Source: a virus
Taxonomy: Duplodnaviria > Heunggongvirae > Uroviricota > Caudoviricetes
Length of the DNA: 33,715 nt
Reading direction: 5' to 3' (one strand)
IMG/VR virus record: IMGVR_UViG_2534682164_000009
The number at the start of each line of letters is the position of its first letter. The stretch's first letter is position 1. The notes under the pieces were generated by a model. That model was not told the origin of the DNA. It saw nothing but the letters and a program-made list of their open reading frames with translations, and did not search any database. Positions 1 to 6,850 of the stretch are shown piece after piece. Both the position numbers and the translations under genes were made by a program.

Positions 1-100
1 TCTCCAGTTTTAGCCGCTCATCACTTTGTTTTCTGTCTGGGGGTTCATGCTGTACCCAGTTGTAATAACCGCTCCTGGATACACCAAATACCTGACACAT
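1..100 (-). CDS. IS600-like transposase OrfB, 5' fragment (cut by window edge)
   Basis: Reverse complement of 81-100 equals the orfB start ATGTGTCAGGTATTTGGTGT of copy B. Confidence 0.6.
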   Translation of the reverse strand, partial: MCQVFGVSRSGYYNWVQHEPPDRKQSDERLKLE

Positions 101-149
101 CGCTTCAATGGGAAATTGTTGTCGCCATTGTTCGATTAACGCGTATTTT

Positions 150-440
150 TCAGCGACTCCTGTGCAAAATACGCCTGTTGCTTTTTTTTAATATATCTCG
201 CTCAAGGCGAGCTTCATTTAACGCCTTACGCAGTTGCAGAATTTCAGATTCCAGTTCAGCCACAGTGCGGGAACCAGGAGTACCGAGCCCTTTTCTGGCG
301 GCGGTAACCCATTGTCCTAAAGTGCCTTCAGGAAGAGATAATCGGGAAGCGCCTTCACTGATCGAAAGTTGATTTTCAAGAACCGTTCTGACAGCTTCGG
401 CTTTGAACTCTTTAGAGTAACGTTGGGTTTTTCTGCTCAT
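150..440 (-). CDS. IS600-like OrfA (HTH protein) with variant 3' end
   Basis: 96-aa ORF identical to copy B OrfA up to ...RDILKK, then diverges because the slippery run is A8 (A7 in copies B and C) and an extra G follows 8 nt later. Confidence 0.8.
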   Translation of the reverse strand: MSRKTQRYSKEFKAEAVRTVLENQLSISEGASRLSLPEGTLGQWVTAARKGLGTPGSRTVAELESEILQLRKALNEARLERDILKKSNRRILHRSR

Positions 441-669
441 TATTAGCTCCTTCTGATGCCATTCTATTTCAGGAAGGAGTGTCCGTTAAACTCAGGCTAC
501 CTCACAATTATTTTCCCGATTGCCCAGACAAAAATTAGAGGGGATATCGGTATCATCAATACGATAAACAGAATGAGAAACAAAAATTCTGTCGCCCTAC
601 TTTTTTGCGGATATTCTTTTCTGAATAATGTAGTCATTTCTTACCGCCCTTTCGGGCGGCCTCCCGACA

Positions 670-882
670 TTAATCGTTGTGGTAACTCATGGCTTCATTT
701 GCAGCATCAACCGGATCAACCTCCCACCAGCAATAATTTGGTGCGTTTCCTTCAGGTGTCCACGGTTCTAATTCATTTTTTGCCACATTCTCGTCGCCAG
801 TAATTTTAAAAATCTGCTCAGAGAATTTTTTCACCCACTCGTTATATTTTTCAGTGTTAATAATTTTCTGTGTATTTGACAT
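670..882 (-). CDS. hypothetical small protein (70 aa), orphan gene between IS600 copy A and IS1
   Basis: ORF with strong Shine-Dalgarno (GGAGGT) 8 nt upstream of ATG at 882; no family recognised. Confidence 0.4.
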   Translation of the reverse strand: MSNTQKIINTEKYNEWVKKFSEQIFKITGDENVAKNELEPWTPEGNAPNYCWWEVDPVDAANEAMSYHND

Positions 883-940
883 AGATATACCTCCAGTTAA
901 GGATTAAATTTTATTTACAGTGCCGGGTAATGACTCCAAC

Positions 941-1444
941 TTATTGATAGTGTTTTATGTTCAGATAATGCCCGATGACTTTGTCATGCAGCTCCACCGA
1001 TTTTGAGAACGACAGCGACTTCCGTCCCAGCCGTGCCAGGTGCTGCCTCAGATTCAGGTTATGCCGCTCAATTCGCTGCGTATATCGCTTGCTGATTACG
1101 TGCAGCTTTCCCTTCAGGCGGGATTCATACAGCGGCCAGCCATCCGTCATCCATATCACCACGTCAAAGGGTGACAGCAGGCTCATAAGACGCCCCAGCG
1201 TCGCCATAGTGCGTTCACCGAATACGTGCGCAACAACCGTCTTCCGGAGACTGTCATACGCGTAAAACAGCCAGCGCTGGCGCGATTTAGCCCCGACATA
1301 GCCCCACTGTTCGTCCATTTCCGCGCAGACGATGACGTCACTGCCCGGCTGTATGCGCGAGGTTACCGACTGCGGCCTGAGTTTTTTAAGTGACGTAAAA
1401 TCGTGTTGAGGCCAACGCCCATAATGCGTGCAGTTGCCCGGCAT
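941..1444 (-). CDS. insB: IS1 InsB frame (expressed as InsAB' by -1 frameshift)
   Basis: 167-aa protein [58 protein letters not shown]... matches IS1 InsB. Confidence 0.9.
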
Positions 1445-1638
1445 CCAACGCCATTCATGGCCATATCAATGATTTTCTGGTGCGTACCGGGTTGAGAAGC
1501 GGTGTAAGTGAACTGCAGTTGCCATGTTTTACGGCAGTGAGAGCAGAGATAGCGCTGATGTCCGGCAGTGCTTTTGCTGTTACGCACCACCCCGTCAGTA
1601 GCTGAACAGGAGGGACAGCTGATAGAAACAGAAGCCAC
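1363..1638 (-). CDS. insA: IS1 InsA
   Basis: 91-aa protein [43 protein letters not shown]... matches IS1 InsA. Confidence 0.9.
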
Positions 1639-1765
1639 TGGAGCACCTCAAAAACACCATCATACACTAAATCAGTAAGTTGGCAGCATCACCACAGTGC
1701 TGAACTTAATTATTCAGATTTTGGATTATGCTTTCTCTTCACGAAGTTCCGATTGTTAATTTGGC

Positions 1766-2155
1766 TCACAACAGCACCTTCTGAAAATTACCCTGATAGA
1801 AAGCCAGTACACGCTGCATAGCTTCGCTCTTCCGGCACTCGCTACAGATTATGTTTTGACGCCTGTCGTAGCGGCGTATTTCTCCGTCTGGTAATGACCA
1901 GATAAGGTCAGGATCAACCACAGATGGTTTCTTCAGATTTGCCCTTGAGAGTTTTTTGCGGGCGTTTTGCCAGTCCTTACGCGCCTGTTCAGACGGGAAT
2001 AACCCGTAACCAGAGTTGTATACATCGCCACTGGCAACCAGCTCTCTGGCGAGAACACTCATCAGATATCTTGTCGCACCTGTCTTGGCTTCCAGTTGCC
2101 GCAACGTCTCGCGACCGCTCAGACGTACAAGTTCAACAACCTGCCCTTTAATTTT
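1766..2155 (-). pseudogene. 5'-truncated phage-like gene of unknown function; N-terminus removed at the IS600 copy B boundary
   Basis: Reverse-strand frame is open from the IS boundary (2155) to the stop at 1766 (…KIKGQVVELVRLSGRETLRQLEAKTGATRYLMS…); the track start at 2104 is a TTG codon; no start upstream. Confidence 0.45.
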
Positions 2156-2219
2156 TGAGGTAGCCTGAGTTTAACGGACACTCCTTCCTGAAATAGAATG
2201 GCATCAGAAGGAGCTAATA

Positions 2220-2522
2220 ATGAGCAGAAAAACCCAACGTTACTCTAAAGAGTTCAAAGCCGAAGCTGTCAGAACGGTTCCTGAAAATCAACTTTCGATC
2301 AGTGAAGGCGCTTCCCGATTATCTCTTCCTGAAGGCACTTTAGGACAATGGGTTACCGCCGCCAGAAAAGGGCTCGGTACTCCTGGTTCCCGCACGGTGG
2401 CTGAACTGGAATCTGAAATTCTGCAACTGCGTAAGGCGTTAAATGAAGCTCGCCTTGAGCGAGATATATTAAAAAAAGCAACAGCGTATTTTGCACAGGA
2501 GTCGCTGAAAAATACGCGTTAA
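2220..2522 (+). CDS. IS600-like OrfA
   Basis: 100-aa IS3-family OrfA (MSRKTQRYSKEFKAEAVRTV…KKATAYFAQESLKNTR). Confidence 0.9.
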   Translation: MSRKTQRYSKEFKAEAVRTVPENQLSISEGASRLSLPEGTLGQWVTAARKGLGTPGSRTVAELESEILQLRKALNEARLERDILKKATAYFAQESLKNTR

Positions 2523-2557
2523 TCGAACAATGGCGACAACAATTTCCCATTGAAGCG

Positions 2558-3376
2558 ATGTGTCAGGTATTTGGTGTATCCAGGAGCGGTTATTACAACT
2601 GGGTACAGCATGAACCCTCAGACAGAAAACAAAGTGATGAGCGGCTAAAACTGGAGATTAAGGTGGCACATATCCGCACTCGCGAAACATATGGAACCCG
2701 GCGGCTCCAGACGGAGCTGGCAGAGAATGGCATCATCGTTGGTCGTGACCGACTGGCACGTCTTCGTAAGGAGCTAAGGCTACACTGTAAGCAGAAACGC
2801 AAGTTCAGAGCGACTACGAACTCGAACCACAATCTGCCAGTTGCGCCAAATCTGCTGAACCAGACGTTCGCTCCTACAGCACCAAATCAGGTCTGGGTGG
2901 CGGACCTGACGTATGTTGCCACACAGGAGGGATGGTTGTACCTCGCTGGCATCAAAGATGTTTATACGTGCGAAATTGTCGGCTACGCCATGGGAGAGCG
3001 CATGACAAAAGAGCTGACAGGTAAAGCCCTGTTTATGGCGCTCAGGAGCCAGCGCCCACCTGCCGGGCTAATCCACCACTCTGATCGAGGTTCACAGTAC
3101 TGCGCATACGATTACCGGGTCATACAGGAGCAGTCTGGTCTGAAAACATCAATGTCGCGTAAAGGTAACTGTTACGACAACGCTCCGATGGAAAGCTTCT
3201 GGGGAACGCTGAAAAATGAGAGCCTGAGCCACTATCGTTTTAATAACCGGGATGAAGCCATCTCAGTAATACGGGAATACATTGAGATTTTCTACAATCG
3301 TCAGCGTCGTCACTCTCGTCTGGGGAATATCTCCCCGGCAGCCTTCAGGGAAAAATATCATCAGATGGCTGCTTAA
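2558..3376 (+). CDS. IS600-like OrfB (DDE transposase; made as OrfAB by -1 frameshift)
   Basis: 272-aa ORF in the -1 frame relative to orfA, with DDE-type IS3-family motifs (…HSDRGSQY…YDNAPMESFWGTLK…). Confidence 0.9.
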   Translation: MCQVFGVSRSGYYNWVQHEPSDRKQSDERLKLEIKVAHIRTRETYGTRRLQTELAENGIIVGRDRLARLRKELRLHCKQKRKFRATTNSNHNLPVAPNLLNQTFAPTAPNQVWVADLTYVATQEGWLYLAGIKDVYTCEIVGYAMGERMTKELTGKALFMALRSQRPPAGLIHHSDRGSQYCAYDYRVIQEQSGLKTSMSRKGNCYDNAPMESFWGTLKNESLSHYRFNNRDEAISVIREYIEIFYNRQRRHSRLGNISPAAFREKYHQMAA

Positions 3377-3628
3377 AAAAAGAACAAATGGTAGTGTCCG
3401 CTATTGCCAGTACACCTCATCCATCACCGAAAAAAATTGGCTTTTACACCATTGGCGATAAAAGCATTTACCTGTATGACCTACGCCGCATGGATGAAAT
3501 CATGGAGGCTCTTGATAATCGTTCGTCGATGGATTGGTGTGTTGCTGTTCATGATATGAATGCAGGGTTTGATGAAAAGATTTTGTTCCCCTCATCAGTT
3601 GAAAGCACTGCGGGTTAAGGAGTAACAC

Positions 3629-3796
3629 ATGACCACTATTACCAAAGAACGTATTGAATTGTTCATTAAAAACCCGCTTGAAAACGGGCTTACCCGTGGT
3701 GAACAAATGGAACTGGCACGGATTGCGCTGGCATCGCTGGAAGCAGAGCCGGTTGTGTTCTGGTTTGAAAAATATCAAGAAGGGGCTACGGCATGA
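3629..3796 (+). CDS. hypothetical small prophage protein (55 aa)
   Basis: Own translation: [61 protein letters not shown] upstream of ATG 3629; stop overlaps next start (ATGA at 3793-3796). Missing from the ORF track (under 60 aa). Confidence 0.5.
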
Positions 3797-4137
3797 CGAC
3801 TTTTACCAGAGAGCAGTTAATAGCTCACGCAGAGGAGACTATTGAAGCACAGAGACTGTGCATACCGGGCACAATCGACCATGACATCATCCGCACATAT
3901 AAGATGGATATTGCTGTTCTGGAAATCGCACTGGTATCGCTGGCAGCAGAGCCAGCCGGTAAATTGCATGAATACAAACCAGTGGGATATCAGCGTCTGG
4001 TCGATGAGTTAACCATGCTGGTAAAGCAGTTAACCTGGCAACTGAGAAAAGCGAAGCCAGACTGCAAATTACCGGATAAGGCGATGAGTTATCTGGAGCG
4101 GAACGGACTGATAAGCGTGGAGGATATTTTACGATGA
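3793..4137 (+). CDS. hypothetical prophage protein (114 aa), paralogous to the upstream 55-aa ORF
   Basis: Shares MTT(I/F)T(K/R)E start and (I)AL(A/V)SL(E/A)AEP motif with the 55-aa ORF; translationally coupled. Confidence 0.55.
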
Positions 4138-4217
4138 CCTGGCCTGAAGCATTAACAACGGTAGGAATTGCGATGGCGGTGGCGCTGGTGGTGTATTCGA
4201 TTTGCCGCTGGGGATAA
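4134..4217 (+). CDS. putative 27-aa single-helix membrane peptide
   Basis: Own translation [30 protein letters not shown] overlaps the preceding stop (ATGA). Confidence 0.3.
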
Positions 4218-4428
4218 AAACGGTTTGCGGGAAAAGGAGAGTTAAGTAGAATTGCAGCGGGTGCTTGAGGCTATCTGTCTCAGGCATGAACACCAAAAGG
4301 CAGATAGAGAAAAGCCCCAGTTAACATTACGCGTCCGGCAAGACGCTTAACATTAATCTGAGGCTCAATCTATGAACGGCAAATCTAGGTTAGCCTCTTA
4401 CGTGCCGAAAGGCAAGGAGAAGCAGGCT

Positions 4429-4584
4429 ATGAAGCAGCAAAAGGCGATGTTAATCGCCCTGATCGTCATCTGTTTAACCGTCATAGTGACGGCACTGGTA
4501 ACGAGGAAAGACCTCTGCGAGGTACGAATTCGAACCGGCCAGACGGAGGTCGCTGTCTTCACAGCTTACGAACCTGAGGAGTAA
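4429..4584 (+). CDS. hokD: Hok/Gef-family type I toxin (HokD/RelF-like)
   Basis: 51-aa MKQQKAMLIALIVICLTVIVTALVTRKDLCEVRIRTGQTEVAVFTAYEPEE matches the Hok family and, as recalled, HokD; intrinsic terminator follows; an in-frame upstream ATG (4372) could extend it. Confidence 0.85.
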   Translation: MKQQKAMLIALIVICLTVIVTALVTRKDLCEVRIRTGQTEVAVFTAYEPEE

Positions 4585-4652
4585 GAGACCAGGCGGGGGA
4601 GAAATCCCTCGCCACCTCTGATGGGTCAGGCATCCTCAATGCACCCACACTT

Positions 4653-4679
4653 AACCCGCTTCGGCGGGTTTTTGTTTTA
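4653..4679 (+). terminator. rho-independent terminator after hok
   Basis: Hairpin AACCCGC-TTCG-GCGGGTT followed by a T-run. Confidence 0.7.
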
Positions 4680-4800: not shown

Positions 4801-5064
4801 TTGATGAAAATCGAAGAATTACGTGAAATTTTTAGTGAAGATGGCCTCTATACTGTGCGCGTTGAGAATGGCGCTATTGTCAGCCACTGCCGTATTAAAT
4901 GTTTACAGTCTCAACAAAGGAAGAGTGGAGCTGCGTTAATTCATTTTGTGGATGGGCTTGTGACGGATGGTTTTATTTCGCGTGCAAATGAATTTGTCAC
5001 ATCGTTGCCGTCTCTGAAAGAAGCTGGGATTAAGGCTGGTTTTTCTGCTTTTGAAGATGAGTGA
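4801..5064 (+). CDS. hypothetical small protein, Rem-like by position next to hok
   Basis: 87-aa ORF; neighbourhood hok - small ORF - YdfU-like - Q resembles recalled K-12 Qin order hokD-rem-ydfU-quuQ. Confidence 0.45.
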   Translation: MMKIEELREIFSEDGLYTVRVENGAIVSHCRIKCLQSQQRKSGAALIHFVDGLVTDGFISRANEFVTSLPSLKEAGIKAGFSAFEDE

Positions 5065-5410: not shown

Positions 5411-6037
5411 GTGCGGGTATTACTTCGACCTGTTCTGGTACCGGAACTCGGTCTGGTTATCGTTAAGCCAGGCCGTGAATCAATGTCAGCATTCCATAAC
5501 GGCAGAATACTGGTGGAGCCGGAACCAAAAAGCATGCGTAATCTGCCGTCCGGGGTCGTTCCTGCCGCTCGCCAGCCGCTGGTGGAAGACAAAACATTGC
5601 TGCCGTTTTTCAGTAACGCACGGGTGATTCGTGCTGCTGGTGGTGCTGGTGCATTGTCTGACTGGCTGTTGCGCCATATTAAATCCTGCCAGTGGCCACA
5701 CGGCGATTATCATCACAGCGAAACCGTCATTCACCGTTATGGTACCGGCGCAATGGTGTTGTGCTGGCACTGCGACAACCAGCTGCGTGACCAGACATCC
5801 GAATCACTCGAGCAACTTGCTCATCAAAACCTGTCAGCATGGATGATTGACGTCATCGGTCACGCAATAAGCGGTACGCAGGAGCGTGAATTATCTCTGG
5901 CTGAATTATCCTGGTGGGCGGTCCGCAATCAGGTGGCGGACGCGCTACCGGAAGCGGTATTACGTCGTTCGCTGGGGTTGCGTGCGGAAAAAATTCGCTC
6001 TGTGTACAGTGAAAGCGACATCATACCGGGAGAGTAG
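5411..6037 (+). CDS. hypothetical prophage protein (208 aa), YdfU/DUF968-like N-terminal part; ends at in-frame TAG
   Basis: Frame is continuous with the YbcO-like ORF across a single TAG at 6035-6037; combined 5411-6469 is 352 codons. Confidence 0.45.
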   Translation: MRVLLRPVLVPELGLVIVKPGRESMSAFHNGRILVEPEPKSMRNLPSGVVPAARQPLVEDKTLLPFFSNARVIRAAGGAGALSDWLLRHIKSCQWPHGDYHHSETVIHRYGTGAMVLCWHCDNQLRDQTSESLEQLAHQNLSAWMIDVIGHAISGTQERELSLAELSWWAVRNQVADALPEAVLRRSLGLRAEKIRSVYSESDIIPGE

Positions 6038-6199
6038 ACAGCCACCAGCATACTGAAGCAGCGCACAAAAAATATTGCGTTACTGCCTCACGTCCACCAG
6101 CAACAGAACCCACCACAGGAAAAGACGGTGGTCAGCATTGCCGTTGATCCGGAGTCACCGGCTCAGTATCTCCAGCGCCAGAAATCACAACGGGAAGAG

Positions 6200-6469: not shown

Positions 6470-6850
6470 ATGACCGAGCGCATAGAATTTGTTTTACCTT
6501 ACCCGCCGACGGTGAACACTTACTGGCGTCGTCGTGGCAGCACATATTTTGTATCAAAAGCCGGGGAGCGTTATCGCCGGGCAGTGGCGCTTATTGTTCG
6601 CCAGCAGCGGCTGAAATTAAGCCTGTCCGGAAGGTTGGCAATAAAAATTATTGCAGAACCACCGGATAAGCGCCGCCGTGACCTGGACAATATTCTGAAA
6701 GCGCCGCTGGATGCGCTGACGCATGCGGGGTTGCTAATGGACGATGAGCAGTTTGATGAAATCAATATCGTTCGTGCTCAGCCAGTATCTGGTGGACGTC
6801 TGGGGGTGAAGATTTATCCCATAATGCTTGAAGGGCAGGTCAAAAAATGA
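6470..6850 (+). CDS. rusA: RusA Holliday-junction resolvase
   Basis: 126 aa with RusA-type sequence (…YWRRRG…PDKRRRDLDNILKAPLDALTHAGLLMDDEQ…); stop overlaps Q start (ATGA). Confidence 0.9.
   Translation: MTERIEFVLPYPPTVNTYWRRRGSTYFVSKAGERYRRAVALIVRQQRLKLSLSGRLAIKIIAEPPDKRRRDLDNILKAPLDALTHAGLLMDDEQFDEINIVRAQPVSGGRLGVKIYPIMLEGQVKK

Follow-up and report, generated by a model that had tools for sequence, protein, structure and literature searches.

A 27-codon gene that often lies next to hok in lambdoid prophages probably encodes a conserved single-pass membrane microprotein

The virus record IMGVR_UViG_2534682164_000009 of IMG/VR, assigned to the Caudoviricetes, is a stretch of 33,715 nucleotides that we refer to as the window. 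Just upstream of a hok locus it carries three small open reading frames (ORFs) of 55, 114, and 27 amino acids, which an earlier note, made from the letters of the DNA alone, had described as a translationally coupled trio ending in a hydrophobic peptide. The last of the three is the subject here. We consider it probable that this 27-codon ORF is a genuine and conserved gene whose product is a single-pass membrane microprotein, and that it belongs to the ea-type early gene arrays carried by Escherichia and Shigella lambdoid prophages and by phage-plasmids. That degree of confidence covers the explanation as a whole, namely that the ORF is a real gene, that it travels as a mosaic module, that it is expressed early by overlap coupling to the gene before it, that its product sits in the inner membrane, and that it is not a type I toxin.

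What marks this short ORF as a gene? It begins inside the end of its upstream neighbor, with the letters ATGA (4134-4137) serving as both start and stop, and the same arrangement joins the 55- and 114-amino-acid ORFs at 3793-3796. The putative ribosome binding site for the 27-codon ORF, a GGAGGA Shine-Dalgarno (SD)-like sequence, likewise lies within the upstream gene. The earlier note had placed all four ORFs of this region correctly (Table 1), and its view of the three as a translationally coupled run holds as far as such signals in the DNA can tell. Its prediction of one transmembrane helix is also supported. The product has a grand average of hydropathy (GRAVY) of 1.13 and a single helix-length apolar stretch, and for the best 19-residue window (residues 6-24) the Hessa insertion energies sum to about 0. 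The peptide is rich in Ala, Val, and Gly, with Trp, Tyr, and Arg at its ends, and its core motif reads W-P-E/D-A-hydrophobic-x3-G-x3-A-x5-hydrophobic/aromatic-S/A-hydrophobic-x-R-W-G.

Further evidence comes from other copies, which were collected in two ways. The first set of loci was chosen independently of the ORF: a 20-mer of the hok promoter served as the query in a scan of IMG/VR. Among its 119 usable loci, 91 have an intact 27-codon ORF, 7 have a related but disrupted one, and 21 lack it; in these 21, the DNA upstream of hok is unrelated, and homology breaks at the position of the ORF stop codon. The second set, a peptide-anchored pattern scan of viral contigs, yielded 168 intact copies representing 62 DNA alleles and 37 protein alleles, which end in TAA, TGA, or TAG. 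The ORF is almost always 27 codons long, and its copies sit in no fewer than 4 different contexts on the upstream side and 10 on the downstream side. The 4-nucleotide ATGA overlap with the upstream stop is present in 159 of 164 copies, and an SD-like site of the GGAGG or AGGA type lies 7 to 13 nucleotides before the ATG in 155 of 164. More divergent alleles, found by tblastn in BP-4795 (MNWPEAFTAVGVAIAVAFILYSLFRWG), PhiR12_4, and an IncY plasmid (MNWPEAFAITGVAMAIAFLVYVICRWG), all retain the 27 codons, the overlap, and the GGAGG site. Start, stop, and ribosome site are thus maintained while DNA identity drops to about 63 to 70%. With frame, overlap, and ribosome site all recurring in about 170 independent copies, the cassette pattern is not a product of chance; homologues that keep the frame, and a translation signal on it, are both there to be found.

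Is it the peptide that selection preserves, or the DNA? In the hok-anchored set, 46% of the distinct changes are synonymous, compared with 25 to 27% expected (p = 0.002-0.008), and the pairwise ratio of nonsynonymous to synonymous divergence (dN/dS) is 0.31. For seven divergent alleles, a set picked by protein similarity in which the pairs are not independent, dN/dS is 0.22 (dN = 0.235, dS = 1.07), while the two control frames give 0.98 and 1.70. Their differences fall mostly at third codon positions (242, against 117 at first and 94 at second positions). Of 32 interior replacements, 26 remain apolar or uncharged. In-frame length variants were discounted as evidence of selection, since the repeat unit responsible is itself 6 nucleotides long. 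By these comparisons, purifying selection acts in the forward 27-codon frame only.

These figures also bear on the idea that there is no gene here at all, and that the 84 nucleotides are conserved as DNA or RNA (a linker for recombination between mosaic modules, part of the hok promoter's upstream region, or an antisense ORF) with the open frame incidental. The 3' third of the ORF does vary very little as DNA, short conserved stretches are frequent at the mosaic junctions of lambdoid phages, and an antisense ORF is open across the region. Such an idea has to contend with the concentration of variation at third positions and the low dN/dS in the forward frame alone, with the retention of the ORF where hok is absent, and with a start, stop, and ribosome site that are held at low DNA identity with no RNA structure; the antisense frame, for its part, has no synonymous excess and gains stops in other alleles. 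We regard this idea as highly improbable, the least probable of those weighed here.

The antisense ORF itself (4129-4296, minus strand) lies opposite the microprotein gene and the hok leader, and it is also open in two related loci (L003, 2262-3011, minus strand; L215, 101-850, minus strand). Some phage records list this ORF in place of the microprotein gene, among them Stx2 converting phage I, where it appears as a 249-amino-acid protein (ORF-38). That annotation is probably spurious, as the frame lacks a synonymous excess and is interrupted by stops in other alleles.

The surroundings of the ORF differ from copy to copy. In Shiga toxin (Stx) phage 933W, DNA homology with the window starts exactly at the ATG; the upstream gene is a different one, L0139, and it has the same ATGA overlap. 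The commonest peptide allele follows genes of the L0139/phrog_1621 type (10 copies), the phrog_660 type (24), and the DUF551 type (19), and it occurs both with hok (28) and without it (29). Across copies, the flanks are nonhomologous beyond about 18 nucleotides upstream and beyond the stop codon downstream. What precedes the ORF is always an accessory gene of the ea type; most of these carry the N-terminal module of Eaa with DUF551, phrog_660, or other C termini, some are Ead/Ea22 genes (PF13935), and for the 933W type (phrog_1621) no relation to the others could be detected. What follows it is the hok promoter in 102 of 164 copies; in the other 62 (about 38%), hok is not directly downstream, and the contexts include several distinct strong terminators (a hairpin plus a run of T) and a gene that starts 2 nucleotides after the stop. 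Comparison of these contexts shows the ORF to behave as a self-contained mosaic module made up of a ribosome site, an overlapping ATG, 27 codons, and a stop. In phages of the BP-4795 type (L216, 1201-1531; L221, 2501-3179), the microprotein gene or a fused tail lies directly upstream of DUF4222 and xis-int.

The module ends close to another. About 7 nucleotides after the stop begins a sequence that we take as the hok promoter and as the left edge of the hok module, its position fitting the 5' end of hok mRNA at 4259. The complete hok/mok/sok locus that follows is identified by an Rfam match to the sok/hok 5' element (112 bits), a Pfam match to HOK_GEF (3e-23, for 4372-4584), and complementarity of the 5' and 3' ends in a fold-back, so the cassette does adjoin hok, as had been noted. 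Does this make the two partners? The ORF is kept without hok, the same allele occurs in varied contexts, and the flanks are not conserved, and for these reasons hok is the commonest downstream neighbor of the gene and not its partner.

This matters because a hydrophobic mini-ORF beside hok invites a specific idea, in line with the earlier note's likening of the peptide to the toxins of type I systems: that it damages the inner membrane in the manner of Hok, TisB, and DinQ, possibly in concert with hok, and that either an antisense RNA or the structure of its mRNA restrains it. The likeness goes as far as a small, hydrophobic peptide with one predicted helix, often encoded directly upstream of hok; and many small hydrophobic peptides are toxic when overproduced. 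Beyond this, the expected parts of a type I system were not found. A promoter scan of the window revealed no promoter-like site of the ORF's own upstream, and its start is overlap-coupled to the gene before it. On the minus strand, where the check for an antisense RNA was made in silico, neither a promoter nor a terminator was detected. Folding of the ORF region on both strands gave z-scores of +0.9 to +1.5, no better than shuffled controls, and the annotated Sok of 933W ends about 90 nucleotides downstream without overlapping the ORF. Nor can a linked antisense gene be conserved along with the ORF, because the flanks are nonhomologous beyond -18 nucleotides and the stop. The peptide matched no toxin or defense family: Pfam returned only a subthreshold match to DUF883_C (E = 0.029), and NCBIfam and PADLOC returned none; the PHROG search gave only phrog_4612 (E = 0.011). 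The composition of the peptide is anchor-like rather than amphipathic and rich in Lys and Leu, and bacteria tolerate as many as seven copies per genome as well as alleles in which it is fused in frame to a soluble protein. Judged from these comparisons, the 27-codon ORF is most likely not a type I toxin gene and not functionally tied to hok; a toxin role of this kind strikes us as very unlikely.

Other identities for the ORF fared no better. A holin would be expected in the lysis cassette, and the ORF sits instead in the accessory region between replication genes and Q or in the int-proximal ea region; in the related phage vB_EcoS-689R5 (L002), the lysis cassette (11179-12810) lies about 4 kb downstream of the small ORF at 6714. 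A longer parent protein was sought, and the matches to phrog_4612 and DUF883_C are too weak to supply one, while database entries of greater length owe it to read-through, to start codons called too far upstream, or to expanded repeats. A programmed -1 frameshift joining the 114-amino-acid protein to the peptide was also rejected, as no slippery heptamer (X XXY YYZ) is present at any junction type.

The most substantial competitor accepts the gene and differs on its purpose. In some genomes, the peptide is not separate at all. The E. coli strain A8 (L226, 601-1032) has an Ea22-like gene that runs in frame into the motif (...PPLENKK-MSWPDAFAIVGVAMSIALIVFAIYRWG), encoding a 143-amino-acid protein (WP_425401920.1). 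In E. coli OkiPb01678 (L225, about 1035-1118), the same Ea22-like gene ends in AAT AAA TGA, with the ATGA overlap and a free 27-codon ORF. The two junctions, AACAAGAAAATGAGC in A8 and AACAATAAATGAGC in OkiPb01678, differ in length by one nucleotide. The fused Ea22-like form is present on 6 contigs, of which 4 come from separate sequencing runs, and a 206-amino-acid version also exists; fusions to the 114-amino-acid family by frameshift or deletion (P0126 and P0144) are found on 5 and 7 contigs. Since in-frame fused alleles exist, the peptide can, to judge by these genes, serve as a C-terminal membrane tail.

From this it might be postulated that the ORF is a detachable or split tail anchor, a portable transmembrane module of Ea22, Eaa, and DUF551 early proteins that is usually made as a separate, coupled chain, tethers or recruits the upstream protein to the inner membrane, and is sometimes fused to it. 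Besides the fusions, it would explain why the ORF always trails an ea-type gene, most of which share the Eaa N-module, and overlap coupling favors matched synthesis of the two chains. In the window, however, the ORF is separate, and a C-terminal helix on a soluble protein is found only in rare fused alleles (A8, P0251, P0257, P0126, and P0144). Far fewer than 1% of copies are fused, and such alleles could have arisen by accident, without effect, as prophages decayed. One and the same allele follows three different upstream C-modules, one of which, phrog_1621, has no detectable relation to the others, and no partner-specific covariation of peptide alleles with upstream gene types was found. That alleles do not match partners, and that fusions are rare, disfavors a specific pairing of the free peptide with the upstream protein. 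We think a split tail anchor unlikely, if less so than a toxin, and equally unlikely the associated notion that single-nucleotide indels at the junction switch the anchor to and from a covalent C-terminal form. Were it true, it would place the action of accessory proteins that have no assigned function at the membrane, and nature would here offer a case in which a single base decides between a split and a fused gene.

How, then, might a free membrane microprotein be made and act? The 27-amino-acid product is most likely, from the features of its gene, a single-pass inner-membrane microprotein of an early operon. Having no promoter of its own, the gene would be expressed only when the early operon is transcribed, from a pR-distal position in the prophage type of the window and from a pL-distal position in the ea region, next to xis-int or att, in Stx phages such as those of the BP-4795 type. 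Ribosomes completing the upstream gene would reinitiate at the overlapping ATG, aided by the GGAGG site. The peptide would then cross the inner membrane once as a helix whose two ends, Trp3-Pro4-Glu5 and Tyr21...Arg25-Trp26, lie at opposite interfaces, and it may act there through this helix, either alone or packed against a membrane partner.

Several observations weigh against this account, in addition to the way in which the divergent alleles were chosen. (i) Some copies are inactivated: vB_EcoS-689R5 (L002, 6714-6824) and its relatives have a 1-nucleotide deletion after ATGAC, Shigella phage POCJ13 (L218, 1201-1281) has a TGG-to-TAG change at codon 3 that makes it a pseudogene, and further copies have TGG changed to TGA or TAG. 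(ii) When only interior codons free of the search pattern are counted, 41% of changes are synonymous versus 30% expected (p = 0.07), a weak signal from a test that the divergent-allele analysis has superseded. (iii) A conserved helix face (F7, G11, A15, and L18) finds no statistical support, as a periodicity test on positions 7-20 is not significant (p = 0.29). (iv) Helix length varies, through 6-nucleotide repeats, over a range of 25 to 35 amino acids in the whole peptide, so that the constraint on it is moderate. (v) At 10 nucleotides, the SD-like site stands rather far from the ATG. (vi) A text search of the literature, including the accessible parts of the supplements to a Ribo-seq study of Sakai and to a census of Enterobacteriaceae microproteins, did not find the peptide. 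(vii) The action in the membrane is something we infer.

Two of these points come with observations of their own. The deletion in vB_EcoS-689R5 has led to the annotation of a 36-amino-acid protein in the wrong frame. The repeats lie in the helix (window 4170-4190; GCGATG/GCGGTG, encoding AM, AV, or LV) and expand and contract in homologues, giving natural variants of 25, 29, 31, 33, and 35 amino acids (P0092-P0101, P0085, and P0095).

The gene is common but narrowly distributed. It is present in 1,636 of 5,426 complete E. coli genomes (30%), at 3,110 places with no more than 7 per genome, 164 of these places being on plasmids. It is carried by 90 phage records, including 933W, VT2-Sakai, Min27, and BP-4795, as well as POCJ13 with its pseudogene, and by 180 plasmids (154 from Escherichia, 25 from Salmonella, and 1 from Klebsiella), mostly nonmobilizable and of 90 to 100 kb. 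A strict-pattern scan of one genome per species found it only in E. coli, Shigella flexneri, an Escherichia sp., and three short contigs (369-1,780 bases) that are labeled as unrelated taxa and look like contamination. Protein searches used a natural 40-amino-acid read-through allele and a profile headed by a 30-amino-acid allele; among 1.84 billion representatives, the profile search gave only 50 matches at E <= 1e-3, a few of which are remote relatives (for example, MEISWPEAIMWIGIAFAAALAIYSIMRWGD). Literature searches on hokW together with 933W returned nothing relevant.

Annotation of the gene is erratic. RefSeq annotates it in none of five regions inspected. The exact peptide has been deposited as a "Prophage protein" (CAL6704654.1), and other submitters use "bacteriophage protein." NCBI names many of the 25- to 30-amino-acid copies "DUF551 domain-containing protein, partial" (P0059, P0061, P0063, P0069, P0080, and others). 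A 90% cluster that joins the peptide with 185-amino-acid DUF551 proteins was rejected as a lead, as those proteins do not contain it. The DUF551 naming and clustering look like an artifact, apparently caused by the neighboring gene.

What of the two ORFs that precede it? Their products are related at their N termini (33% identity over 54 amino acids; BLASTP E = 1e-5), and, as previously remarked, both have the start MTTxT(K/R)E and the motif IALxSLxAEP. The 55-amino-acid ORF has an AAGGAG ribosome site 7 nucleotides upstream and is annotated by RefSeq in E. coli (WP_000207997.1). A 197-amino-acid Salmonella "Eaa protein" (P0205) begins like it up to EAEPV, with two conservative substitutions, and ends in a diverged copy of the C-module of the 114-amino-acid type. 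By this homology, the 55-amino-acid ORF amounts to the N-terminal stub of a gene of the Eaa type. A natural recombinant of 101 amino acids (P0146) joins its N-module at IALASL/AEP to the C-half of the 114-amino-acid protein, and here the motif can be seen to act as a crossover point.

The AlphaFold2 model of the 114-amino-acid protein (predicted local distance difference test score of 78) has a confident helical hairpin (residues 6-51), a linker (55-62) predicted to be disordered or flexible that comes directly after the shared motif, and a helical C-module. It has no significant sequence match in the PDB and no fold match with E < 0.8. All of its homologues are uncharacterized prophage proteins of mosaic build, with an N-module (M-T-T-x-T-K/R-E ...), a variable middle, and one of several C-modules, one of which is DUF551, ending in ...PEPPQEVNQ. 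The N-module is also found in P0002, P0181, and P0205. In a Pfam scan, neither the 55- nor the 114-amino-acid protein matches DUF551 (PF04448) or Ead_Ea22 (PF13935); these domains occur in relatives that share the N-module. With that module and a position in the lambdoid accessory array, the two ORFs are, on homology, members of the mosaic Eaa/DUF551 accessory family. This agrees with the description of Ea22 as having portable C-terminal domains, including DUF551 (PMC10834534). As the P0205 and P0146 mosaics and the hairpin-linker boundary of the model indicate, IALxSLxAEP closes the helical-hairpin N-domain at the flexible linker and is both a domain end and a module-exchange junction in the family. 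The shared motif is therefore present as noted, and it is the N-module/linker junction of a whole family rather than a mark of this cassette.

The ORFs belong to a lambdoid prophage and occupy its accessory region, which has the replication and Ea22-like genes on one side and the DUF968-RusA-Q block on the other; an equivalent layout is present in an intact E. coli prophage (L001) and in vB_EcoS-689R5. In the window, the operon is truncated by the insertion sequence (IS) IS600. Its right end lies within what was an 87-amino-acid prophage gene (phrog_1714, WP_000224227; intact in L001 at 5935-6198), with which homology begins at about 3421. The earlier note recognized that the ORF upstream of the trio starts inside the IS600 end and that the native 5' context is lost; this ORF takes about its first 11 codons from IS600, and the remainder is the 3' two-thirds of the 87-amino-acid gene, whose 5' half was not found anywhere in the window. 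To the left of IS600 (window 1-2200) are IS1 and an inverted prophage fragment of the DUF977 type. Because IS600 ends inside the gene and the DNA to its left is of this kind, the native promoter context has been lost in this genome, and the trio in the window is probably silent, its upstream operon having been removed by IS600 and rearrangement. A second copy of IS600 lies at 13532-14350 on the minus strand, its orfB identical to that of the first at 817 of 819 positions; this copy, IS1, and the inverted fragment indicate a prophage rearranged by IS elements.

Table 1. Features of the window around the 27-codon ORF (positions in the window)
Feature	Position	Strand	Description
IS600 (IS3 family)	2220..3421	+	orfA 2220-2522, orfB 2558-3376, right end at about 3421; names from RefSeq, junction located
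Chimeric 76-amino-acid ORF	3388..3618	+	first codons (about 11) from the IS600 end
55-amino-acid ORF	3629..3796	+	N-terminal module (MTTITKER...) of an Eaa/DUF551-type accessory protein; phrog_3323 (1e-19), phrog_60
114-amino-acid ORF	3793..4137	+	paralogous N-module, linker, conserved C-module; phrog_660 (8e-43), WP_000206826
GGAGGA SD-like site	4119..4124	+	within the last codons of the 114-amino-acid gene, 10 nucleotides before the ATG of the 27-codon ORF
27-amino-acid microprotein gene (probable)	4134..4217	+	ATGA overlap with upstream stop, TAA at 4215-4217, one predicted transmembrane helix
hok promoter (inferred)	4224..4252	+	-35 TTTGCG/TTGCGG at about 4224-4230, -10 TAGAAT at 4247-4252
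hok/mok/sok locus, intact	4259..4670	+	hok mRNA 5' element 4259-4434, mok 4372-4584, hok 4429-4584, terminator 4653-4670

Further features lie beyond hok. Directly after it is an ORF of 87 amino acids (4801-5064, plus strand) that matches phrog_340 (1e-21), a match that assigns no function; in related prophages (L001) the position after hok holds helix-turn-helix and ImmA/IrrE genes instead. Window segments 9339-9588, 9664-9853, and 10131-10340 hold three tRNA genes (anticodons CAT, TCG, and TCT) and then two copies of the STnc100 small RNA family, which score 124 and 161 bits. Phages of the Stx type are known to carry comparable groups of tRNA genes downstream of Q.

Why does so small a gene matter? 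Some 30% of complete E. coli genomes carry it, many of them more than once, as do the Shiga toxin phages 933W, VT2-Sakai, and BP-4795. It adds a well-supported family to the phage-encoded, translationally coupled membrane microproteins, and it corrects the natural assumption that a hydrophobic mini-ORF beside hok is part of a toxin system. The fused and split alleles also offer an experimental handle on where the Ea22, Eaa, and DUF551 accessory proteins act. As the family is narrow and its general kind already very numerous in Enterobacteriaceae, the finding is useful rather than surprising.

Among known systems, the type I toxins Hok/Gef, TisB, DinQ, ShoB, Ibs, Ldr, and Zor are alike in being very small hydrophobic peptides of one helix, and hok is physically adjacent here. 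The 27-amino-acid peptide differs in having no sequence relation to them, no promoter of its own, no structured leader, and no antisense RNA predicted in silico; it is overlap-coupled to an upstream gene, independent of hok, and anchor-like rather than amphipathic. A closer likeness in form is provided by CydX (of cydABX), KdpF (of kdpFABC), AcrZ, and MgtS, proteins of 25 to 50 amino acids with one transmembrane helix that bind a larger membrane protein and whose genes are often packed against or overlap a neighboring gene. Those proteins have defined partners, whereas here the upstream genes encode soluble, variable phage accessory proteins, and the gene itself is a mobile mosaic module.

The peptide also resembles the microproteins of intergenic small ORFs in Enterobacteriaceae, for which 67,297 clusters under purifying selection, mostly hydrophobic, have been described (PMC11188072), in being unannotated, short, hydrophobic, and under purifying selection. 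Unlike them, it was not found in the accessible parts of the supplements of that work, overlaps its upstream gene by 4 nucleotides, and is prophage-borne. Finally, lambda Ea22 and its variants in Stx phages (PMC10834534) share the accessory early-gene neighborhood and the plan of a common N-terminal part with exchangeable C-modules, including DUF551. That account of Ea22 describes no transmembrane tail and no separately translated tail gene, and the 55- and 114-amino-acid ORFs, which fall below the Pfam thresholds for Ead_Ea22 and DUF551, share only the Eaa-type N-module; some of the strains compared here, by contrast, carry the peptide as the C-terminal tail of an Ead/Ea22-type protein.

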